Source: Spirochaetia bacterium
GTDB taxonomy: Bacteria > Spirochaetota > Spirochaetia > DSM-16054 > Sediminispirochaetaceae
Reading direction: 5' to 3'
DNA length: 64,000 nt
Assembly (NCBI GenBank): GCA_034520965.1
Contig: JAXHMY010000002.1
Location: forward strand, 320,001-384,000
The number at the start of each line of letters is the position of its first letter. Within the stretch, counting starts at the first letter, position 1. This document shows, piece after piece, positions 31,853 through 41,829 of this stretch. Position numbers and translations under genes: made by a program. The notes beneath the pieces are model-generated. The model did no database searches and was not told the DNA's origin. It saw only the letters and a list, made by a program, of their open reading frames with translations.

Positions 31853-33682
31853 GTGAACATGCAAGAACAAGCCCCCCTGCTGACCGAGGTAAGCGGGGGG
31901 ACTTCGATTGTATTTAAAAATAAGGAACTCTACAGCCGCAGTTCACCTCGCACGAGGGCCGAAGAACGGGCGGCGGCCTTTGAACTTGAAACCCACACAC
32001 TTTATATACTGGCCTCGCCACTGCTGTGGTACGGGGTCGCTGTGCTGCTTAAAAAGCTCCCGCCAAGCTCACACATTATCGCTGTTGAACAAGAGCCCCA
32101 ACTTGCCGCACTTAGCATCTCGCACCAGCCTCTTGAACTCAGCCGGAACGAGCAGCTGGACATAGGATTTTATCCGGAGGGAGGGCTTGAGGCTGAGGTT
32201 CCCGCTGGTAACAATCCTGAATCCGGCAGCGCTGAAACAGAAGGCCATGCAACTAGCAGCGCTGAAACCAAGGCTCCTGAATCCGGCGCCGCCGGAGACA
32301 TTTTTAAGTCGATACCGGCACTGGTTAAAAAACTCGGTATTGAACGCTTCCGCCGGGTGCGTTTGCTAACCCTGAACGGGGGGTATCGCCTGAACAGCCG
32401 CCGCTACACAGAGCTGGTACAACTTTTAGAAGAGGAGGTTCAGCAGTTCTGGCATAACAAGTATACCCTCATGCATATGCTGCCTCTCTGGATAAAGAAT
32501 ATTTTGCGCAACCTTGCCCTGTGTACCTTCCCGGCAGGAGCCTCGGACACGGTGCCCGAAACAAAACTATCTCACCTGGAAAGCTGTCCTCGGTTTGGTT
32601 TGCCGAAGACCTCCCTTCCGGTACTGGTTGCCGGAGCAGGCCCCAGCCTCGACACGCACATCGACTTTATCCGCCGCTATCGTGATACTATATATCTATT
32701 AGCCGTGGACACCGCCTACTCTGTGCTTCTGCAGCACGGTATTAAGCCCGACATGGTGGTGGTGCAGGAGTCTCAGTTCTACAATCTGTACGACTTCATT
32801 TACCAGCCCCGGATCGAAGCCGACATTCTGGCGGATATCAGCAGCTACCCCCAGGTCATTCGTCTCGGCGCCGGCAACATCTATTTATACGCCACCGAGT
32901 TTGTCCATACTCAGCTATTCACCCGTTTGCAAAAGGTCTCACTGCTGCCGCCCCGGATTCCCCCGCTGGGATCGGTTGGTACCACCGCTGTCCATGCCGC
33001 CCTCTCTATCACCGACTCAACGGTAATTCTGGCGGGCATCGATTTCGCCTTTCCCCCGGGCCAGACCCATGCCCGCGGCGCCCCCCGCCATCAGCTGAAC
33101 CTGCAGCACAGCCACCGCTTTCTGGGAATCGAGGATATGTGGCCTCGCACCACCAAGGGTGTCACACGCACTCCAGACGCCTCGGATGCCTTGGGAGTTC
33201 CACTGCGTACCACCCCAAGCCTAAGGCGCTATGCAGATAATTTTACGCGTGTATTTCATTCTTTGGATCGGATGCTCTTGTTAAAGCCCCGGGGCTTACC
33301 CTTAGGTATACCGGAGCTCACGCAAGCTGAACTTGCCCCTTATCTCTCGTCGGTAGAAAAACGGTTAATGCCCCATCCTTCTCCATCCCTGCCCGCCATG
33401 GGCGATAGTGAGGCTGTTGAGGGCTTTCTACAGCGCGAACAGAAGCTGCTGCATTCAATTTACACCCAAGGATTAGCCTTTCTTGAGGGACGGCTGTCGG
33501 AAGCGGAACTTTCGAAGCTGTCCTTGGATATACACCGCTGCGAGTATCTGTTTCTGCATTTCCCTGAAACAGGGCCAAGCCTGCGCAAGCTGGAGCCGGC
33601 CATGATAAAACGGATAATGGTTACTGCCGGCCACTACATTCGGGTGATCGACGAGGCGCTGGAGCTTATTCCTCGCTCTTAA
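31853..33682 (+). CDS. MAF_flag10/DUF115 (motility-associated factor-like) protein
   Basis: [23 protein letters not shown] and LAGIDFAF motifs. Confidence 0.8.
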
Positions 33683-35468
33683 GCACCGAGACAAAGGCCG
33701 ACTGGGGCAGCTCTACATTTCCAACCATCTTCATCCGCTTTTTACCCTCTTTCTGCTTTTCCAATAGCTTGCGCTTACGGCTGATATCTCCGCCGTAGCA
33801 CTTGGAGGTTACATCTTTGCGGAGGGCATTGATAGTCTCCCGGGCTATAACGGTATTCCCAATAGTTCCCTGCAGAGGAATTTTGAACTGCTGCCGGGGT
33901 ATCTCGTCCTTCAGTTTTCGGCAAATAGTACGGGCCCGGGAAACAGCATTATCCTTATGCACCAGCTGGCTCAAGGCATCCACCGGTTCGCCGTTTACCA
34001 GAATATCGAGTTTCACCAGCTCGGTTCGCTTATAAGGTCCGATTTCGTAATCGAAGGAGGCAAAGCCCCGGCTCACCGATTTAAGCTTGTCGTAAAAGTC
34101 GAAGAGTACCTCCGCCAGAGGCATCTCGTAGGTTACCTCAACCCGCTTTTCATCCAGATAGTTCATAGCCTTCTGAATGCCCCGTTTCTCCAGACAAATC
34201 TGAATTATGTTGCCCAGATATTCGGCGGGAGTGATAATGGCTGCGTCAATGTAGGGCTCTTCGGCATACTCAACCTTGGTGCTGTCCGGATACTCAAGGG
34301 GATTGTCCACGTCGATTACCTCGCCGCTGTTTCAGGTGAACCTTGTAGCGGACCGAAGGAGCGGTGAGAATAATTGAAAGGTCAAACTCCCGTTCAATCC
34401 GCTCCTGCACTACTTCCAGGTGCAGCAGCCCTAAAAAGCCGCAGCGAAAGCCGAAACCCAGGGCCGCGGAGGAATCCTTCTCGTAAATAAGGGAGGCGTC
34501 GTTCAGTTTCAGCTTATCGATGGCCGTTCGCAGCTCTTCGTAGTCGTTGGTGTCAATCGGATAAATGGAGGAGAAAACCACCGGTTTGACCTCTTTGAAG
34601 CCCTTCTGCGGTTCCGCACAGGGGTGCTTGTCGTTGGTCACGGTGTCACCAATACGAACATCTTCAATGTTTTTTATGCCGGCAATCAGATAGCCCACCT
34701 GTCCGGCATTAAGATTTTCACCCTTCTCCAGTCCCAGCCTGAAAATTCCGGTCTCTTCAATGGTATAGGTGGTGTTGTTCCACCACAGGCGAATCACGTC
34801 GCCGGCCTTCATAGTCCCTTCAAACACACGGACGTGAATAATTACCCCGCGGTAGGCATCATACTTGGAGTCGAATATCAGGGCTTTTAGGGGCTGGTCG
34901 TCGGTTCCGGAGGGGGCCGGTATATGATGAACAAGAGCCTCCAGCAGGTCATTGACCCCCTCCCCTGATTTTGCCGATACCAGCACCGCATCATCCGGGT
35001 CCAGCCCCAGGTCGTGCTCGATTTCTCGTTTTACCATCTCAATATCGGCACTGGGCAGGTCGATTTTATTAATCACCGGTATTATTTCCAGGTCTAGTTC
35101 AACGGCCATATACATATTGGCAAAGGTCTGCGCCTCAACCCCCTGGCTGGCGTCAATCAACAGCAGCGCCCCCTCGCAGGAGGAGATAGCCCGGGAAACT
35201 TCGTAGGCAAAATCAACATGTCCCGGAGTATCAACCAGGTTCAGTTCGTAGATATTCCCGTCATCCGCCTCATAGGGCATGGTAATTGCCTGGGATTTGA
35301 TGGTAATACCCCGCTCACGTTCAATATCCATATTATCGAGATATTGCTCCTTAAAATTACGGGCCTCAACTATCTTAGCCTTTTCGATAAACCTATCGGC
35401 TAGGGTAGATTTCCCATGGTCTATATGGGCTATTATGCAGAAGTTGCGGATAAATTCTTTAGGTGTAT
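33666..35468 (-). CDS. lepA: Elongation factor 4 LepA, 3' exon (first 4 nt ATGA at 37342-37339; frameshift ~34331)
   Basis: [32 protein letters not shown] and [25 protein letters not shown] motifs. Confidence 0.95.
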
Positions 35469-37338
35469 GTAGAGTAGACATACTATCGCCTTCCTTCATT
35501 AAGGGGGTTACGATAGCATGCCCCTCCCAGAACCGTACGTGCGCAACTAACGCATACGGCTCCTAGCACTAAACATTCGACCATTGCCAGATGTCTTTGC
35601 AAATTCTGCGGTCTTGGTATTAATTTCCATATCTTTTCAAACGTCTCCCAATTTATCTTGTGCTTCTGACCTCTCCGCCTTAGAGCCTTATACAGCGTGT
35701 ATCTGATGTATTTATAGAACTTGTACAGCCCTATTCAGATTTCCGTTGACCCCATAGTAATTGTAGTGCCCAACCAGTTTCCGGCTTAGTGCTCTCACAA
35801 TCTCCATGACAGGTCGATGCATATTCCATCTAATCCACTGCTTTGCGCTCTCGCGTTTAGCCTTCAGCTTCTTCTTGCTAGTGAGGTGCAGAACTGTGTA
35901 CTTACCAGTCCTTGTACTGGCATTTCACGTGGGTGAATCCAGAGATCAAATGTCTCCTTGGTTCCTTTGTACCTTCCAAATGGAATAATCCTTGTCTTCT
36001 CTTCGGCCACCGTTAGCTTGAACTTTGCAAGCCTTTTAAGCATCACCTCGTAGAATCTTTTCGCATCATCCTCGTACTGGAACAATACCACATAGTCATC
36101 CGCATAACGGTATAAGTATGCCTCACCCCTCAAACACCTTTTCACTACCTTCTCAAACCACAAGTCGAGTACGTAATGAAGATAGACGTTAGCCAGCACC
36201 GGCGAAATAAGCCCTCCTTGCGGAGTCCCCTTGTCGCTGTCGCTGACGTTCCCATTCTCCATGATCCCCGCCTTGAGAAATCTTACTACATAACGGATGA
36301 AATTCTTGTCCTGTATATCGTTCTCAAGAAACTTCACCAGCCATTCGTGGTCGACATTGTCAAAGAACCCTTTGATGTCGGCATCAAGAATATAATTTAC
36401 CTTCTTAGTCATGATCGTTTGGTTTATCTCCCGTATTACATCATGACAATTCCGATTCGGCCTGAACCCGTAGGAACAGTCCAGAAACCTCGGCTCGTAT
36501 ATCTCAGTCAGCACCTTCGCCATTATTCCCTGTACGAGTTTGTCCTCATACGCCGGGATTCCCAGCGGTCGTACCGTGCCATCCGTCTTGGGTATGTATG
36601 TTCTTCTCACCGCCTGCGGTCTGTAGCTGAAGGATTTCATCCGTCCAAGCAATGCATCCACATGCTCTTCCAGTCCGGACTCATAGCTCTCCTTCGTCGC
36701 TCCGTCTATGCCTGCGGCTTTTCCTCTGACCTGCGCCCGATGCTCTGCCTTCAGATTCTCCCTGTTGACGTAGTGCATGAGCGTCTGCATCTTTGCGTGA
36801 CTCTCCGACAACCTCCTCAACTCCCCATAGCTATTTTCCACTCTTTCAGAACCTCCAGTGTTCCTGGTGTTGGCCACAAGAAATACGTTTAATGCCCAGA
36901 CCCCTTCGCTCCACCGACTTTCACCGGTTTCATCGCTACTATGAGTCTGTCCGATTGCTGATGCCCCATACAGGTTTCTTGACTCCTCGCCTTTACGTCC
37001 CCTCTTAGTCCAACGGACAGGACATCAGCCCTCCCAGGTACGCTTGATCTACCTTGTGTGCTCGCCATGCTCTCAGACCCCGTTGGGTTCTCTGCACTCT
37101 CGCCTTTTTCCGAGCGCTTCTTGCTGGTTGCTGTCATATGAAAAACATCACCACCCAATCTTTATACTAACGAGGCTCAATCACGTTCAACCTTTCGGCT
37201 TATGGCTCTCACACTCCTTTGCCTACGCTTAAACCTCACCTCACGGCTTCGGCTCCAAGGCTAAGTACCGGCTGTTGGCTAGACTTTACCGGACAGGGTG
37301 TCTCACCCTGCTATATATCAAACGCCGAACTGGCGCAC
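35469..37338 (-). mobile_element. Group II intron (1870 nt) inserted after nt 4 of lepA
   Basis: 5' GTGCG at 37338; domain V GAGCCGTATGCG...CACGTACGGTTC; domain VI with bulged A ending CTACTCTAC at 35469; RT ORF inside; exon ligation restores ATG AAT ACA CCT. Confidence 0.92.
35569..36841 (-). CDS. ltrA: Group II intron reverse transcriptase/maturase, no endonuclease domain (3' frameshifts)
   Basis: RPLGIP, SYGFRP, DADIKGFFD, GTPQGG and YADD motifs; X domain GHYNYYGV in a shifted frame; GTG 36841 with GGAGGT RBS. Confidence 0.9.
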
Positions 37339-37349
37339 TCATTGGGTTT

Positions 37350-37378
37350 ACTATAGCTTAATATTCGATCTTCATCAA
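37350..37378 (-). promoter_or_regulatory. lepA promoter (leaderless spacing)
   Basis: TTGATG-17-TATAGT, 7 nt before ATG 37342; no SD sequence. Confidence 0.6.
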
Positions 37379-37395: not shown

Positions 37396-37533
37396 CAGCG
37401 ATTCTCAATTTGGAAGTCTTCTGACTTCCAAATTGAATTCACATGCAAATGCTTGAAATTTTTATATATCTTAACTTTGGAGGCATTCTCAATTTGGATA
37501 GCGTAATTACACTATCCAAATTGAGAATTGCTG
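37396..37533. mobile_element. MITE copy 2 (diverged)
   Basis: 19-bp TIR cagcgattctcaatttgga/tccaaattgagaattgctg (1 mismatch); perfect 9-bp duplication gcccattaa. Confidence 0.85.
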
Positions 37534-39964: not shown

Positions 39965-41829
39965 CTAAGGTGCTCCTGCATTGGCTTCCCTTAACTCCTG
40001 TAGAATTTTCTGTACCTTCGCGCCATTTTTGCTTCGACAAGCCATCATAAGCTTGAACAGACGTCCGGAGGTATCCTGATCCTGGATCTGTTGAGCAATT
40101 TTTCGAATCCGCTGTGCCTCCTCCTCAAGCTGGTCATACTCGGTGCTCTGTAAATTCTCTGCATCCACTGTATATAAACCCGAGAGCAGATCCTGCAGCT
40201 CGCCAAGCATATATGCTTGCTTGTGCTCTTTCTGCTGCTCCTCTTGCGGATTCTTCTGTGGTGCCTCCTGTGGCACAATGAGTTGTCTCAAATAGAGAGT
40301 GTGTGCGGCGTCCGGCCACAGCTCGTCTGCAGCGCCCATCAATAGATGATTCAGCTGCTTCAGCAATTTACGTCTGAGGATAGGACTATACAAGTAAGTG
40401 GCGGCAGGGTCTTCCTGCACATTTTTCCGGCTGCTGCGGACAAGATATAACAGTCTCGTTGGAGAAACGCCCATCTCTCTGAGGCTTTTTCCGATTCTAT
40501 GGCATACGGTGAGGGTATCCTCAATCACAAATAGACTCCCGGAGGCTAGCTTGTATTCACCTGATCTGTCAGGGATAGTAAGGGGTACCCCCCAAGTCTG
40601 AAATTGGCGCCGTCGTATTTCGGTGGTGAAAGAATTTGAACTTAAATAAAACACCGGGGGAGCGCTGCGGAAATCCGGAGAATCTAAAACCTCTCTGTCA
40701 TCAAGGTCTCCAGGTTCAAGCTGCAGCCTAAAGGTAAACTCGCTCCCTTCACCTACGGTCGAGGAAAAGTCGATGGTACCGCCCATAAGGTGAATCGTAT
40801 CATTCACAATCGCCAAACCCAATCCGGCTCCATCATGGGCACGGGTAGAGGTACTGTCCACCTGATGAAATGATTTAAACACATTCTGCCGTTCCGATTC
40901 GGGAATTCCGCATCCGGTATCACGAATCCGACCGGCTAGAACTATTTTATCTTTGTGTACCTCATCAGGTTCGGTTTTTACCTTCAAATGCACCCAGCCA
41001 GTGTTCGGTCAAATTTAACAGCGTTACTCAGCAGGTTTACCAGTACTTGCTCTACTTTGTCCGAATCACCGTGAAGATGAAAACGGCTAGTTTCATCTAT
41101 CTCAATATATACACCCAAGTTCTTCTTCTGTATCTGAGTCCAGAGTTTGTTTATCGAATTCTCGAATAGCTCGTCCAGATAAAAATCATGTGTATTGATA
41201 ACAACCTTACCCGCTTCTACTCTAGAAAACTCTAGGAGTGAATCGATCATGGTCAAAAGGTTCCTCCCAGAGCTCTCTATAATCTGCAAATACTCCTTCT
41301 GCTCCTCGGGCTCATTGGTTTTTTGTGCCAACTGGGTCATCCCAAGGATACTGTTCAGGGGGGTTCGAAGTTCATGACTCACATTCGCTAAAAAGCCACT
41401 TTTCGCCCGGCTTCCCGCTTCGGCTTTTTCTTTTGCCGCTATCAACTCTTGCTCAATTTTGTATTTATACAAGGCCATTTCAATGGTGGAGTAAATCTCC
41501 CGTTCCTGAAAAGGTTTAAGAATATATCCGAAGGGTTCGGTTACCTTCGCCCGGGCTAGGGTGGTTTCATCGGAATAGGCGGTAATATAAATTACGGGAG
41601 TCCCTAGGGTACTTTTGATGCGTTCAGCAGCCTGGATACCATCCATATTCCCCTTAAGGTGAATATCCATCAGGATCAGATCCGGTTTCTCTTGTTCTGC
41701 CTTCGTTACGGCATCTTCTCCCGACAGAACATGCTCTATTACCGAATACCCAAGCGCATTGAGCCGTCGCTCCATATCCATAGCCACAATGCTTTCATCT
41801 TCTACGAGTAAAATTCGTACGGATGCCAT
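39965..41829 (-). CDS. Hybrid histidine kinase REC-HisKA-HATPase with degenerate C-terminal domains (frameshift ~41000)
   Basis: SHELRTPL, NLLSNAVKF, DTGCGI and GAGLGL motifs across ORFs 40984-41829 and 39965-40993. Confidence 0.85.

Follow-up and report, generated by a model that had tools for sequence, protein, structure and literature searches.

The window (the whole 64,000-nt stretch of DNA that was analysed) contains a mobile group II intron of the IIB type directly behind the ATGA of a likely leaderless lepA gene, and this intron probably belongs to a lineage that is often found behind -10 boxes, likely through base pairing between its EBS2 and the box. On the target DNA, EBS2 would pair with the -10 hexamer, and a 6-nt EBS1 together with EBS3 would read ATGA and the next purine. 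There is also a wider scheme, on which we are close to evenly divided and lean slightly against, in which EBS2 acts as an anti-Pribnow guide and in which promoter homing, splicing from a triphosphorylated 4–10-nt exon, circles and start repair by domain VI are all combined, in two branches of one RT family whose EBS1 has been retuned to leaderless ATGs in spirochaetes and to SDs in Bacillota.

A group II intron behind the lepA start codon

When the two exons are joined across the intron and translated they give the LepA N-terminus of intron-free relatives, and lepA is intron-free in eight same-genus genomes (8 of 9 loci could be aligned, and the remaining locus did not cover the start). Rfam models match the intron in domain I (RF02005, 121 bits) and in domains V–VI (RF00029, 48 bits), and the hallmarks of a group II retroelement are present, with GUGYG...AY ends, an AGC triad in domain V and a bulged A in domain VI. 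The main features, and a repeat that lies nearby, are the following.

35469–37338, minus strand: group II intron of 1870 nt, GUGCG...AC, delimited from Rfam, three copies in the same genome and intron-free alleles
37339–37342, minus strand: ATGA, the lepA start codon plus one base, and the IBS1 core; predicted 5′ exon of 4–5 nt, a length deduced from the promoter position
33666–35468, minus strand: lepA 3′ exon (TIGR01393, over cut-off)
35570–36877, minus strand: RT/maturase gene (TIGR04416, 312.5 bits, over cut-off)
35530–35562, minus strand: domain V, carrying the AGC triad; its loop is predicted to be 5 nt long
35471–35527, minus strand: domain VI, with the bulged A at 35475 (predicted fold, z -3.55)
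37396–37533, no strand assigned: MITE-like 138-bp repeat with inverted ends, outside the intron, in the gap that separates the lepA promoter from the response-regulator gene upstream of it

The 138-bp repeat has 26 near-full-length matches in the same genome and many in same-genus genomes; it folds into two long hairpins, and is absent from the lepA site in aligned relatives.

The genome carries three copies of the intron at three sites (lepA, C1 and C3), all of them on the G-rich strand (n = 3). The C1 copy is 98.8% identical to the lepA copy and follows the ATGA of a LuxR-type response regulator, and the C3 copy (G000:C3:54398-59859) lies within another reading frame and is split by a 3.6-kb transposase-bearing insert. 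The three copies at three sites and an empty allele in DNA run X1 point to mobility; with the end-to-start joints in RNA runs (see below), they bear only indirectly on self-splicing and homing activity.

The RT/maturase gene sits in domain IV and is frameshifted at lepA but intact (435 aa) in the C1 copy. An RT piece of 337 aa that was scanned has RVT_1 as its sole domain, and from the 435-aa length, with an end 100 nt before that of the intron, we judge the RT to be without an endonuclease domain. A GGAGG stands ahead of an internal GTG at the RT start; reading of the RT from the host ATG was ruled out, as a stop follows 18 codons into that frame. Compared with C1, the RT at lepA has four indel sites (35608–35943 region), and lepA itself has one extra base near 34332 relative to five of five relatives. 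At 35940 a DNA run (X1) agrees fully with C1 (16.1 of 16.1); at 35736 it agrees in part, and at 35925 and 35607 it does not back C1. The frameshifts in lepA and in its RT are possibly assembly errors. A kinase gene at 39965–41829 likewise looks split, possibly by an assembly error.

The lepA promoter and its likely leaderless start

The initial annotation had described a TTGATG-17-TATAGT promoter ending 7 nt ahead of the lepA ATG (37342–37340), with no SD, and the comparison with relatives bears this out.

37373–37378, minus strand: predicted -35 box TTGATG; its TTGA is conserved at all 8 of the lepA starts aligned from the genus
37350–37355, minus strand: predicted -10 box TATAGT, which on DNA is likely IBS2 as well

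A single promoter match of this kind is at chance level (one found versus 0.9 expected in shuffles, 1 kb searched), so that support for the promoter comes from its conservation: TTGA..17..TATAGT-7/8-ATG is retained in all eight of the alignable same-genus lepA starts, with spacers that vary, and no SD was seen by eye before the lepA ATG in these eight relatives. The gene is likely leaderless. Transcription from sigma-70 promoters starts 6–8 nt behind the -10 hexamer, which would put +1 on the A of the ATG or one base before it, so that a precursor made from the lepA promoter would carry a 5′ exon of just 4–5 nt. No terminator was found on the minus strand upstream of the lepA promoter, and contigs of the empty allele in RNA runs extend across the promoter; either read-through from the upstream operon into lepA or DNA carry-over is therefore possible.

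Recognition of the exons by EBS1 and EBS3

Domain I was aligned for 46 relatives, from which two with broken domains and four with exons shorter than 6 nt were removed, leaving 40 introns for the pairing counts.

37132–37147, minus strand: EBS1 hairpin, stem TGTT/GACA; EBS1 is UCAUAU at 37141–37136 and delta is the U at 37142
37075, minus strand: EBS3 (U), intron nt 264, pairing with the first base of the 3′ exon
37277–37279, minus strand: alpha, pairing with 37104–37102 in 39, 38 and 26 of 40 introns
37102–37104, minus strand: alpha-prime, located in the loop of the next stem-loop after the EBS1 hairpin

The hairpin at 37147–37132, which had been proposed to display UCAU (37141–37138) as EBS1, is upheld by covariation in both its loop and its stem across the 40 introns. 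The four stem pairs are kept in 38, 40, 40 and 32 of these with varying pair types, and the first four EBS1 positions pair with exon positions -1 to -4 in 40, 40, 37 and 39 of them (20–23 with shuffled exons). Positions 5 and 6 are paired in 32 and 28 (16 and 17 with shuffled exons), and position 7 has no excess pairing (17 versus 18); when position 6 is counted on the 26 distinct EBS1 words, 16 are paired versus 10.3 (p 0.007). As had been claimed, UCAU is complementary to exactly AUGA at lepA and four pairs form there, but an EBS1 of 4 nt, the other part of that proposal, gives way to one of 6 nt, since positions 5–6 covary and both sister copies (C1 and C3) pair all six. In the C1 copy UCAUGU lies opposite GCAUGA, and the A-to-G change at the equivalent of 37137 matches the C at exon position -5, a compensating change. 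The lepA site is one of 4 among the 40 that pair neither position 5 nor position 6; as a target it is imperfect, with 4 of 6 pairs.

A ribozyme remodelled to have a 4-nt EBS1 and to lack EBS2, recognising AUGA at the 5′ ends of mRNAs, would account for the four pairs at lepA and for positions 1–4 being the best conserved, and IIC introns do work with 3–4 bp of EBS1 pairing (PMC7923331, in part). The covariation at positions 5–6, the six pairs of the sister copies, and the presence of both EBS2 and EBS3 refute its structural claim, and we regard this explanation as very improbable. What is specialised is EBS2, with its complementarity to the -10 box, and domain VI, which brings a further SD and ATG.

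EBS3 was located by comparing every domain I column with exon position +1 in 30 introns, where nt 264 was the sole clear column (29 of 30 paired, 24 of these Watson-Crick versus 10 expected). The U before EBS1 (37142) had been suggested to pair with the A at exon +1; this delta-to-exon pairing is ruled out by 7 Watson-Crick pairs versus 8.5 expected, and the role falls to 37075. Position 37142 is a U in 38 of 40 introns and position 37168 an A in all 40, such that the two are compatible in 38 of 40, without covariation, and 37168 is likely delta-prime. A delta paired inside the intron is the IIB arrangement (sections of PMC3123198).

Target sites across the lineage

All three copies in this genome have TATAGT 6–7 nt ahead of ATGA, and the same pattern recurs in a spirochaete sub-lineage of 17 sites (one G059 copy of another subtype is excluded), whose 5′ exons end in ATGA (13), ATGG (3) or GTGA (1). 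A match of at least 5/6 to the -10 hexamer lies 5–7 nt upstream of RTGR at 12 of the 17 sites, compared to 1.8% of all RTGR words in the genome of the window, and a match of at least 4/6 at 15 of the 17, compared to 7.6%; the spacing is 5 nt at three sites, 6 nt at ten, and 7 nt at two. The spirochaete target thus reads as a -10 box, 5–7 nt, RTGR, and then the intron. Two further sites are on loose contig ends: the first reads TG-n-TACAAT-6-ATGA, and the box of the second is weak (4/6).

In an RT tree made by a quick method from fetched relatives, the intron falls in a 46-row clade (clade A, SH-aLRT 95), to which short RT-less contigs were also assigned by their 5′ sequence. This gave 66 distinct sites for clade A, after removal of six for short flanks and one as a duplicate. 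A pattern scan of metagenomes returned mostly chance matches in GC-rich DNA, and candidates were kept only where a domain I profile or motif passed; over all loci 69 distinct sites were kept from 219 candidates. A hexamer matching at least 5/6 and ending 6–16 nt before the intron is present at 34 of the 66 clade A sites versus 8.2 in shuffles (maximum 17 in 300 shuffles) and 6 and 7 of the 66 in upstream control windows, in statistics that ignore kinship, such that p-values overstate. Under a lax 4/6 rule the excess shrinks (41 versus 24), and the 32 of 66 sites without a strong -10 match count against our preferred explanation. In clade B, 11 of 14 sites lie behind a -10 hexamer versus 2.7 in shuffles, and among other relatives, outside of clades A and B, none of 14 do. 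In clade A the spacing between -10 box and intron ranges over 9–16 nt. An extended TG-n precedes the hexamer at 10 of the 14 clade B sites and 7 of the 17 spirochaete sites versus a background of about 5–6%; because EBS2 does not cover TG-n, real promoters would seem to be favoured as well, either by selection or by access.

At two sites a copy follows a -10 box and ATGA whose ATG opens a frame of only 29 or 44 codons, another frame being the long one, and this favours a DNA sequence as the thing recognised over a true start codon or an mRNA end. The initial annotation had supposed that the ribozyme is adapted to AUG+A at mRNA 5′ ends: insertion after ATG plus a purine stands (RTGR at 17 of 17 sites), but it is apparently the DNA sequence that is recognised. 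The EBS1 of many members from Bacillota is matched to GGAG/AGG-like words, with the host ATG 5–13 nt into the 3′ exon, and the SD-like or other words read by Bacillota introns lie at the same short distance behind a -10 box.

Several individual sites are worth recording. In Bacillota members the spacer could be looped out by an inverted repeat, GUCGAG/CUCGAC (judged by eye). Four introns of clade A type (L255, L259, L260 and L184) lie behind terminator-like hairpins with T runs and no -10 box, again as judged by eye. Clade B (L050–L080, 5′ end GTGCGAGCTG) is found in Lachnospiraceae and Desulfosporosinus and has a longer 5′ hairpin insert; its introns sit 9–11 nt behind extended -10 boxes and have the clearest EBS2 covariation. 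One copy (L297) is at TG-n-TAGAAT-6-ATGA ahead of a transposase-like frame, in what is apparently that element's promoter, and related introns in L046, L048 and L072–L075 occupy a shared repeat-like target, with a Rfam Bacillaceae-1 match nearby in L072.

EBS2 and its complementarity to the -10 box

The absence of an EBS2, which had been predicted along with the EBS1 loop in domain I, is contradicted by tests in which each intron is scored against its own and against swapped exons, so that of this description of domain I only the EBS1 loop is retained.

37158–37170, minus strand: EBS2 segment, located by the own-versus-swapped exon tests; UAUA at 37166–37163 is complementary to the TATA of the -10 box

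The segment fits its own exon better than swapped exons in clade A (33 types; score p 0.006, energy p 0.001; p 0.86 for a sham intron segment) and in clade B (p 0.0007), with the caveats that AT-rich words favour chance pairing and that kin are not independent. The core of EBS2 in clade B is AUUAU, the complement of positions 2–6 of the -10 hexamer, and when EBS2 and hexamer are anchored 65 of 70 pairs are Watson-Crick versus 55.5 with swapped exons (p 0.00025; hexamers chosen by eye). Four non-consensus hexamers in this clade (TATGCC, TACAAT, TATACT and TGTAAT) each have a matching change in EBS2. The segment also prefers its own exon in the non-promoter relatives (p 0.0005), and since its partner there lies mostly at -14 to -8 it is an ordinary EBS2.

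In the spirochaetes EBS2 pairing is shorter (3–4 bp), with UAUA opposite TATA at the three sites of this genome, and is poorer at sites with TAGAAT and TACAAT (two). Two sites in complete genomes pair only 4/6, with gaps, the first pair using the likely delta-prime A, and one relative has the EBS2 variant CUAUAG, complementary to CTATAG. As far as sequence comparison goes, covariation shows EBS2 to be complementary to the -10 box in sister clade B, and more weakly in the spirochaete sub-lineage.

The match between EBS2 and the box could be a minor by-product of entry into the open promoter bubble, or of insertion at any ATGA with spread of only those copies that lie behind active promoters. 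The excess of TG-n is unexplained by pairing and would fit, as would the 9–16 nt range of -10 spacing in clade A and the poor pairing of the TAGAAT or TACAAT spirochaete sites. Neither the four compensatory EBS2 changes in clade B nor the C3 copy, which is within a reading frame and still has TATAGT-7-ATGA, is expected on this account, and entry into the bubble also has against it that, in the open complex, the non-template strand of the -10 region is covered by sigma; we consider this account improbable.

If EBS2 does guide the intron to the -10 box, as we prefer, the RNP would reverse-splice into single-stranded DNA, as suggested by an RT protein with no endonuclease. Landing at the 5′ end of a transcript would ensure transcription of the promoter-less intron, and this may in turn select for real promoters. 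Because IBS2 is upstream of the predicted start site, EBS2 pairing would serve DNA homing only.

Possible splicing from a short exon

If transcription starts at the ATG, IBS2 and the partners of EBS1 positions 5–6 are absent from the RNA, and only four or five pairs would be left to hold the exon for splicing. By nearest-neighbour rules alone, such an exon duplex is worth -1.2 to -1.5 kcal/mol (-1.2 for 4 bp). The EBS2–IBS2 pairing is dispensable for splicing both in IIE/IIF introns (described in part of PMC3753933) and in RmInt1 (PMC3123198, likewise in part), and its loss may thus be tolerable, such that splicing from a minimal exon of 4–5 nt is plausible. Splicing would use either EBS1 alone on this exon, or a long exon provided by read-through.

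The last base of the intron is joined to its first in RNA runs from two studies, X16 (depth 18.8) and X19 (depth 30.6), in relatives at about 95% identity; the joint was missing from a further two RNA runs and from two DNA runs, these being of other samples. A full-length circle has been described for a IIF intron (PMC3753933, in the part available to us), and the joint hints at either such a circle or a tandem copy. Two full intron copies in tandem, which would give the same joint, are present in the DNA of a metagenome contig (L144:2301-4213). RNA runs X17 and X19 contain exon–exon joints, but these do not prove splicing, because the same joint occurs in DNA run X1, where it runs past the promoter and so represents an empty allele.

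The copy at lepA may itself be dead or splice only rarely, with lepA expressed from the domain VI start (see below) or from a long read-through RNA, or else broken. The frameshifts in its RT and in lepA point this way, as do the -1.2 kcal/mol of the 4-bp duplex, the lack of any minus-strand terminator found upstream, and the empty-allele contigs of the RNA runs that cross the promoter. Set against these, the intact C1 RT could act in trans, the indels have the look of assembly errors at the positions where X1 backs C1, and domains I, V and VI are intact. We think a dead or rarely splicing copy unlikely, and this reading and the preferred one are compatible and can hold together.

Relationship to known group II introns

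The intron has the features of subgroup IIB, with an EBS1 of about 6 bp and an EBS2 (4 bp at lepA) together with an EBS3 that reads the 3′ exon, and its closest likeness is to class E/F (IIE/IIF; Nagy et al. 2013, PMC3753933, in part). These share the same compact IIB-type ribozyme with alpha-prime in a terminal loop, a 5-nt domain V loop and an RT too short for an endonuclease, whereas in the class E/F members described IBS2 is directly upstream of IBS1 in a long exon, and here it is likely the -10 box. The likeness to class E/F is one of structure; the RT tree covered fetched relatives. In a congener of the L041 organism there is a multi-copy RF02005 intron at 51% RT identity, possibly a named class E intron. 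We found no mention of a promoter association of class E/F introns in the part of PMC3753933 that was available.

Introns of a IIB1/CL1 clade also lie at start and stop codons, such as Avi.groEL and EcKTE56.groEL (Gomes et al. 2025, PMC12584367, in part), and resemble the lepA intron in being inserted in or next to initiation codons, there of housekeeping genes. They differ in having a subdomain Ia of 300–700 nt, which is lacking in the lepA intron, where EBS1 begins at intron nt 198, and in being proteobacterial with a CL1 RT that includes an endonuclease, whereas here the RT has 435 aa and the absence of the domain is judged by length. Membership in this clade was rejected on the absence of a large subdomain Ia and the short RT.

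IIC introns (PMC4424553, PMC8919778 and PMC7923331, each in part) are alike in targeting a recurring expression signal, in their short EBS1 pairing and in occupying many sites per genome, but they insert after terminators or in attC sites, have no EBS2 and read a DNA hairpin. The lepA-intron lineage keeps EBS2 and scores with RF02005, whereas a terminator-adjacent control scored with RF02001. Membership in IIC was rejected, as the intron shows none of the features of a missing EBS2, a 3–4-nt EBS1 and an upstream hairpin.

A 2015 review lists three target specificities for bacterial group II introns, namely homing sites, terminators and attC sites (PMC4424553, in part), and how the start/stop-codon clade finds its sites was called unknown in 2025 (in sections of PMC12584367). 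No description of promoter targeting by group II introns was found in the literature searched. Comparison among relatives gives good support to a predicted promoter-proximal targeting lineage with an EBS2 directed against the -10 box and a rescue start in domain VI. The lineage offers a target rule, base pairing to the -10 box, that can be tested by mutation, and if the rule is true then the two jobs of EBS2 are separated in nature, because its partner would never be in the precursor RNA. It also supplies natural substrates on which the lower length limit of a 5′ exon can be examined.

Predicted translation signals in domain VI

Domain VI of the lepA copy contains signals from which translation of the host gene could begin.

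35479–35496, minus strand: SD-like AAGGAAGG (35496–35489), 7 nt, and ATG (35481–35479), inside domain VI and in frame with the lepA 3′ exon

The ATG is 13 nt before the intron end and has the same phase as ATG+N. At 12 spirochaete junctions it leads into open frames of at least 150 codons (172–504) in seven and into short ones in five, and two of these five are the insertions behind a -10 box and ATGA at which a different frame is the long one. Of 36 clade A ends, 21 have an SD-like word at -28 to -26 relative to the 3′ terminus (counted by eye). The SD and ATG are both paired within domain VI in the predicted fold (-27 kcal/mol), so their use would require opening of the stem. Domain VI is thus a predicted spare start, which could keep the host gene translatable from unspliced RNA when the stem opens, and the lepA intron would be a retroelement guarding its host gene through built-in translation signals. 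Variants of this region occur in three relatives. In L013 and L014 domain VI is shortened but has an SD, and the intron-final AT and the exon G rebuild an ATG; in L002 another, longer sequence stands in place of domain VI, ahead of the same terminal bases.
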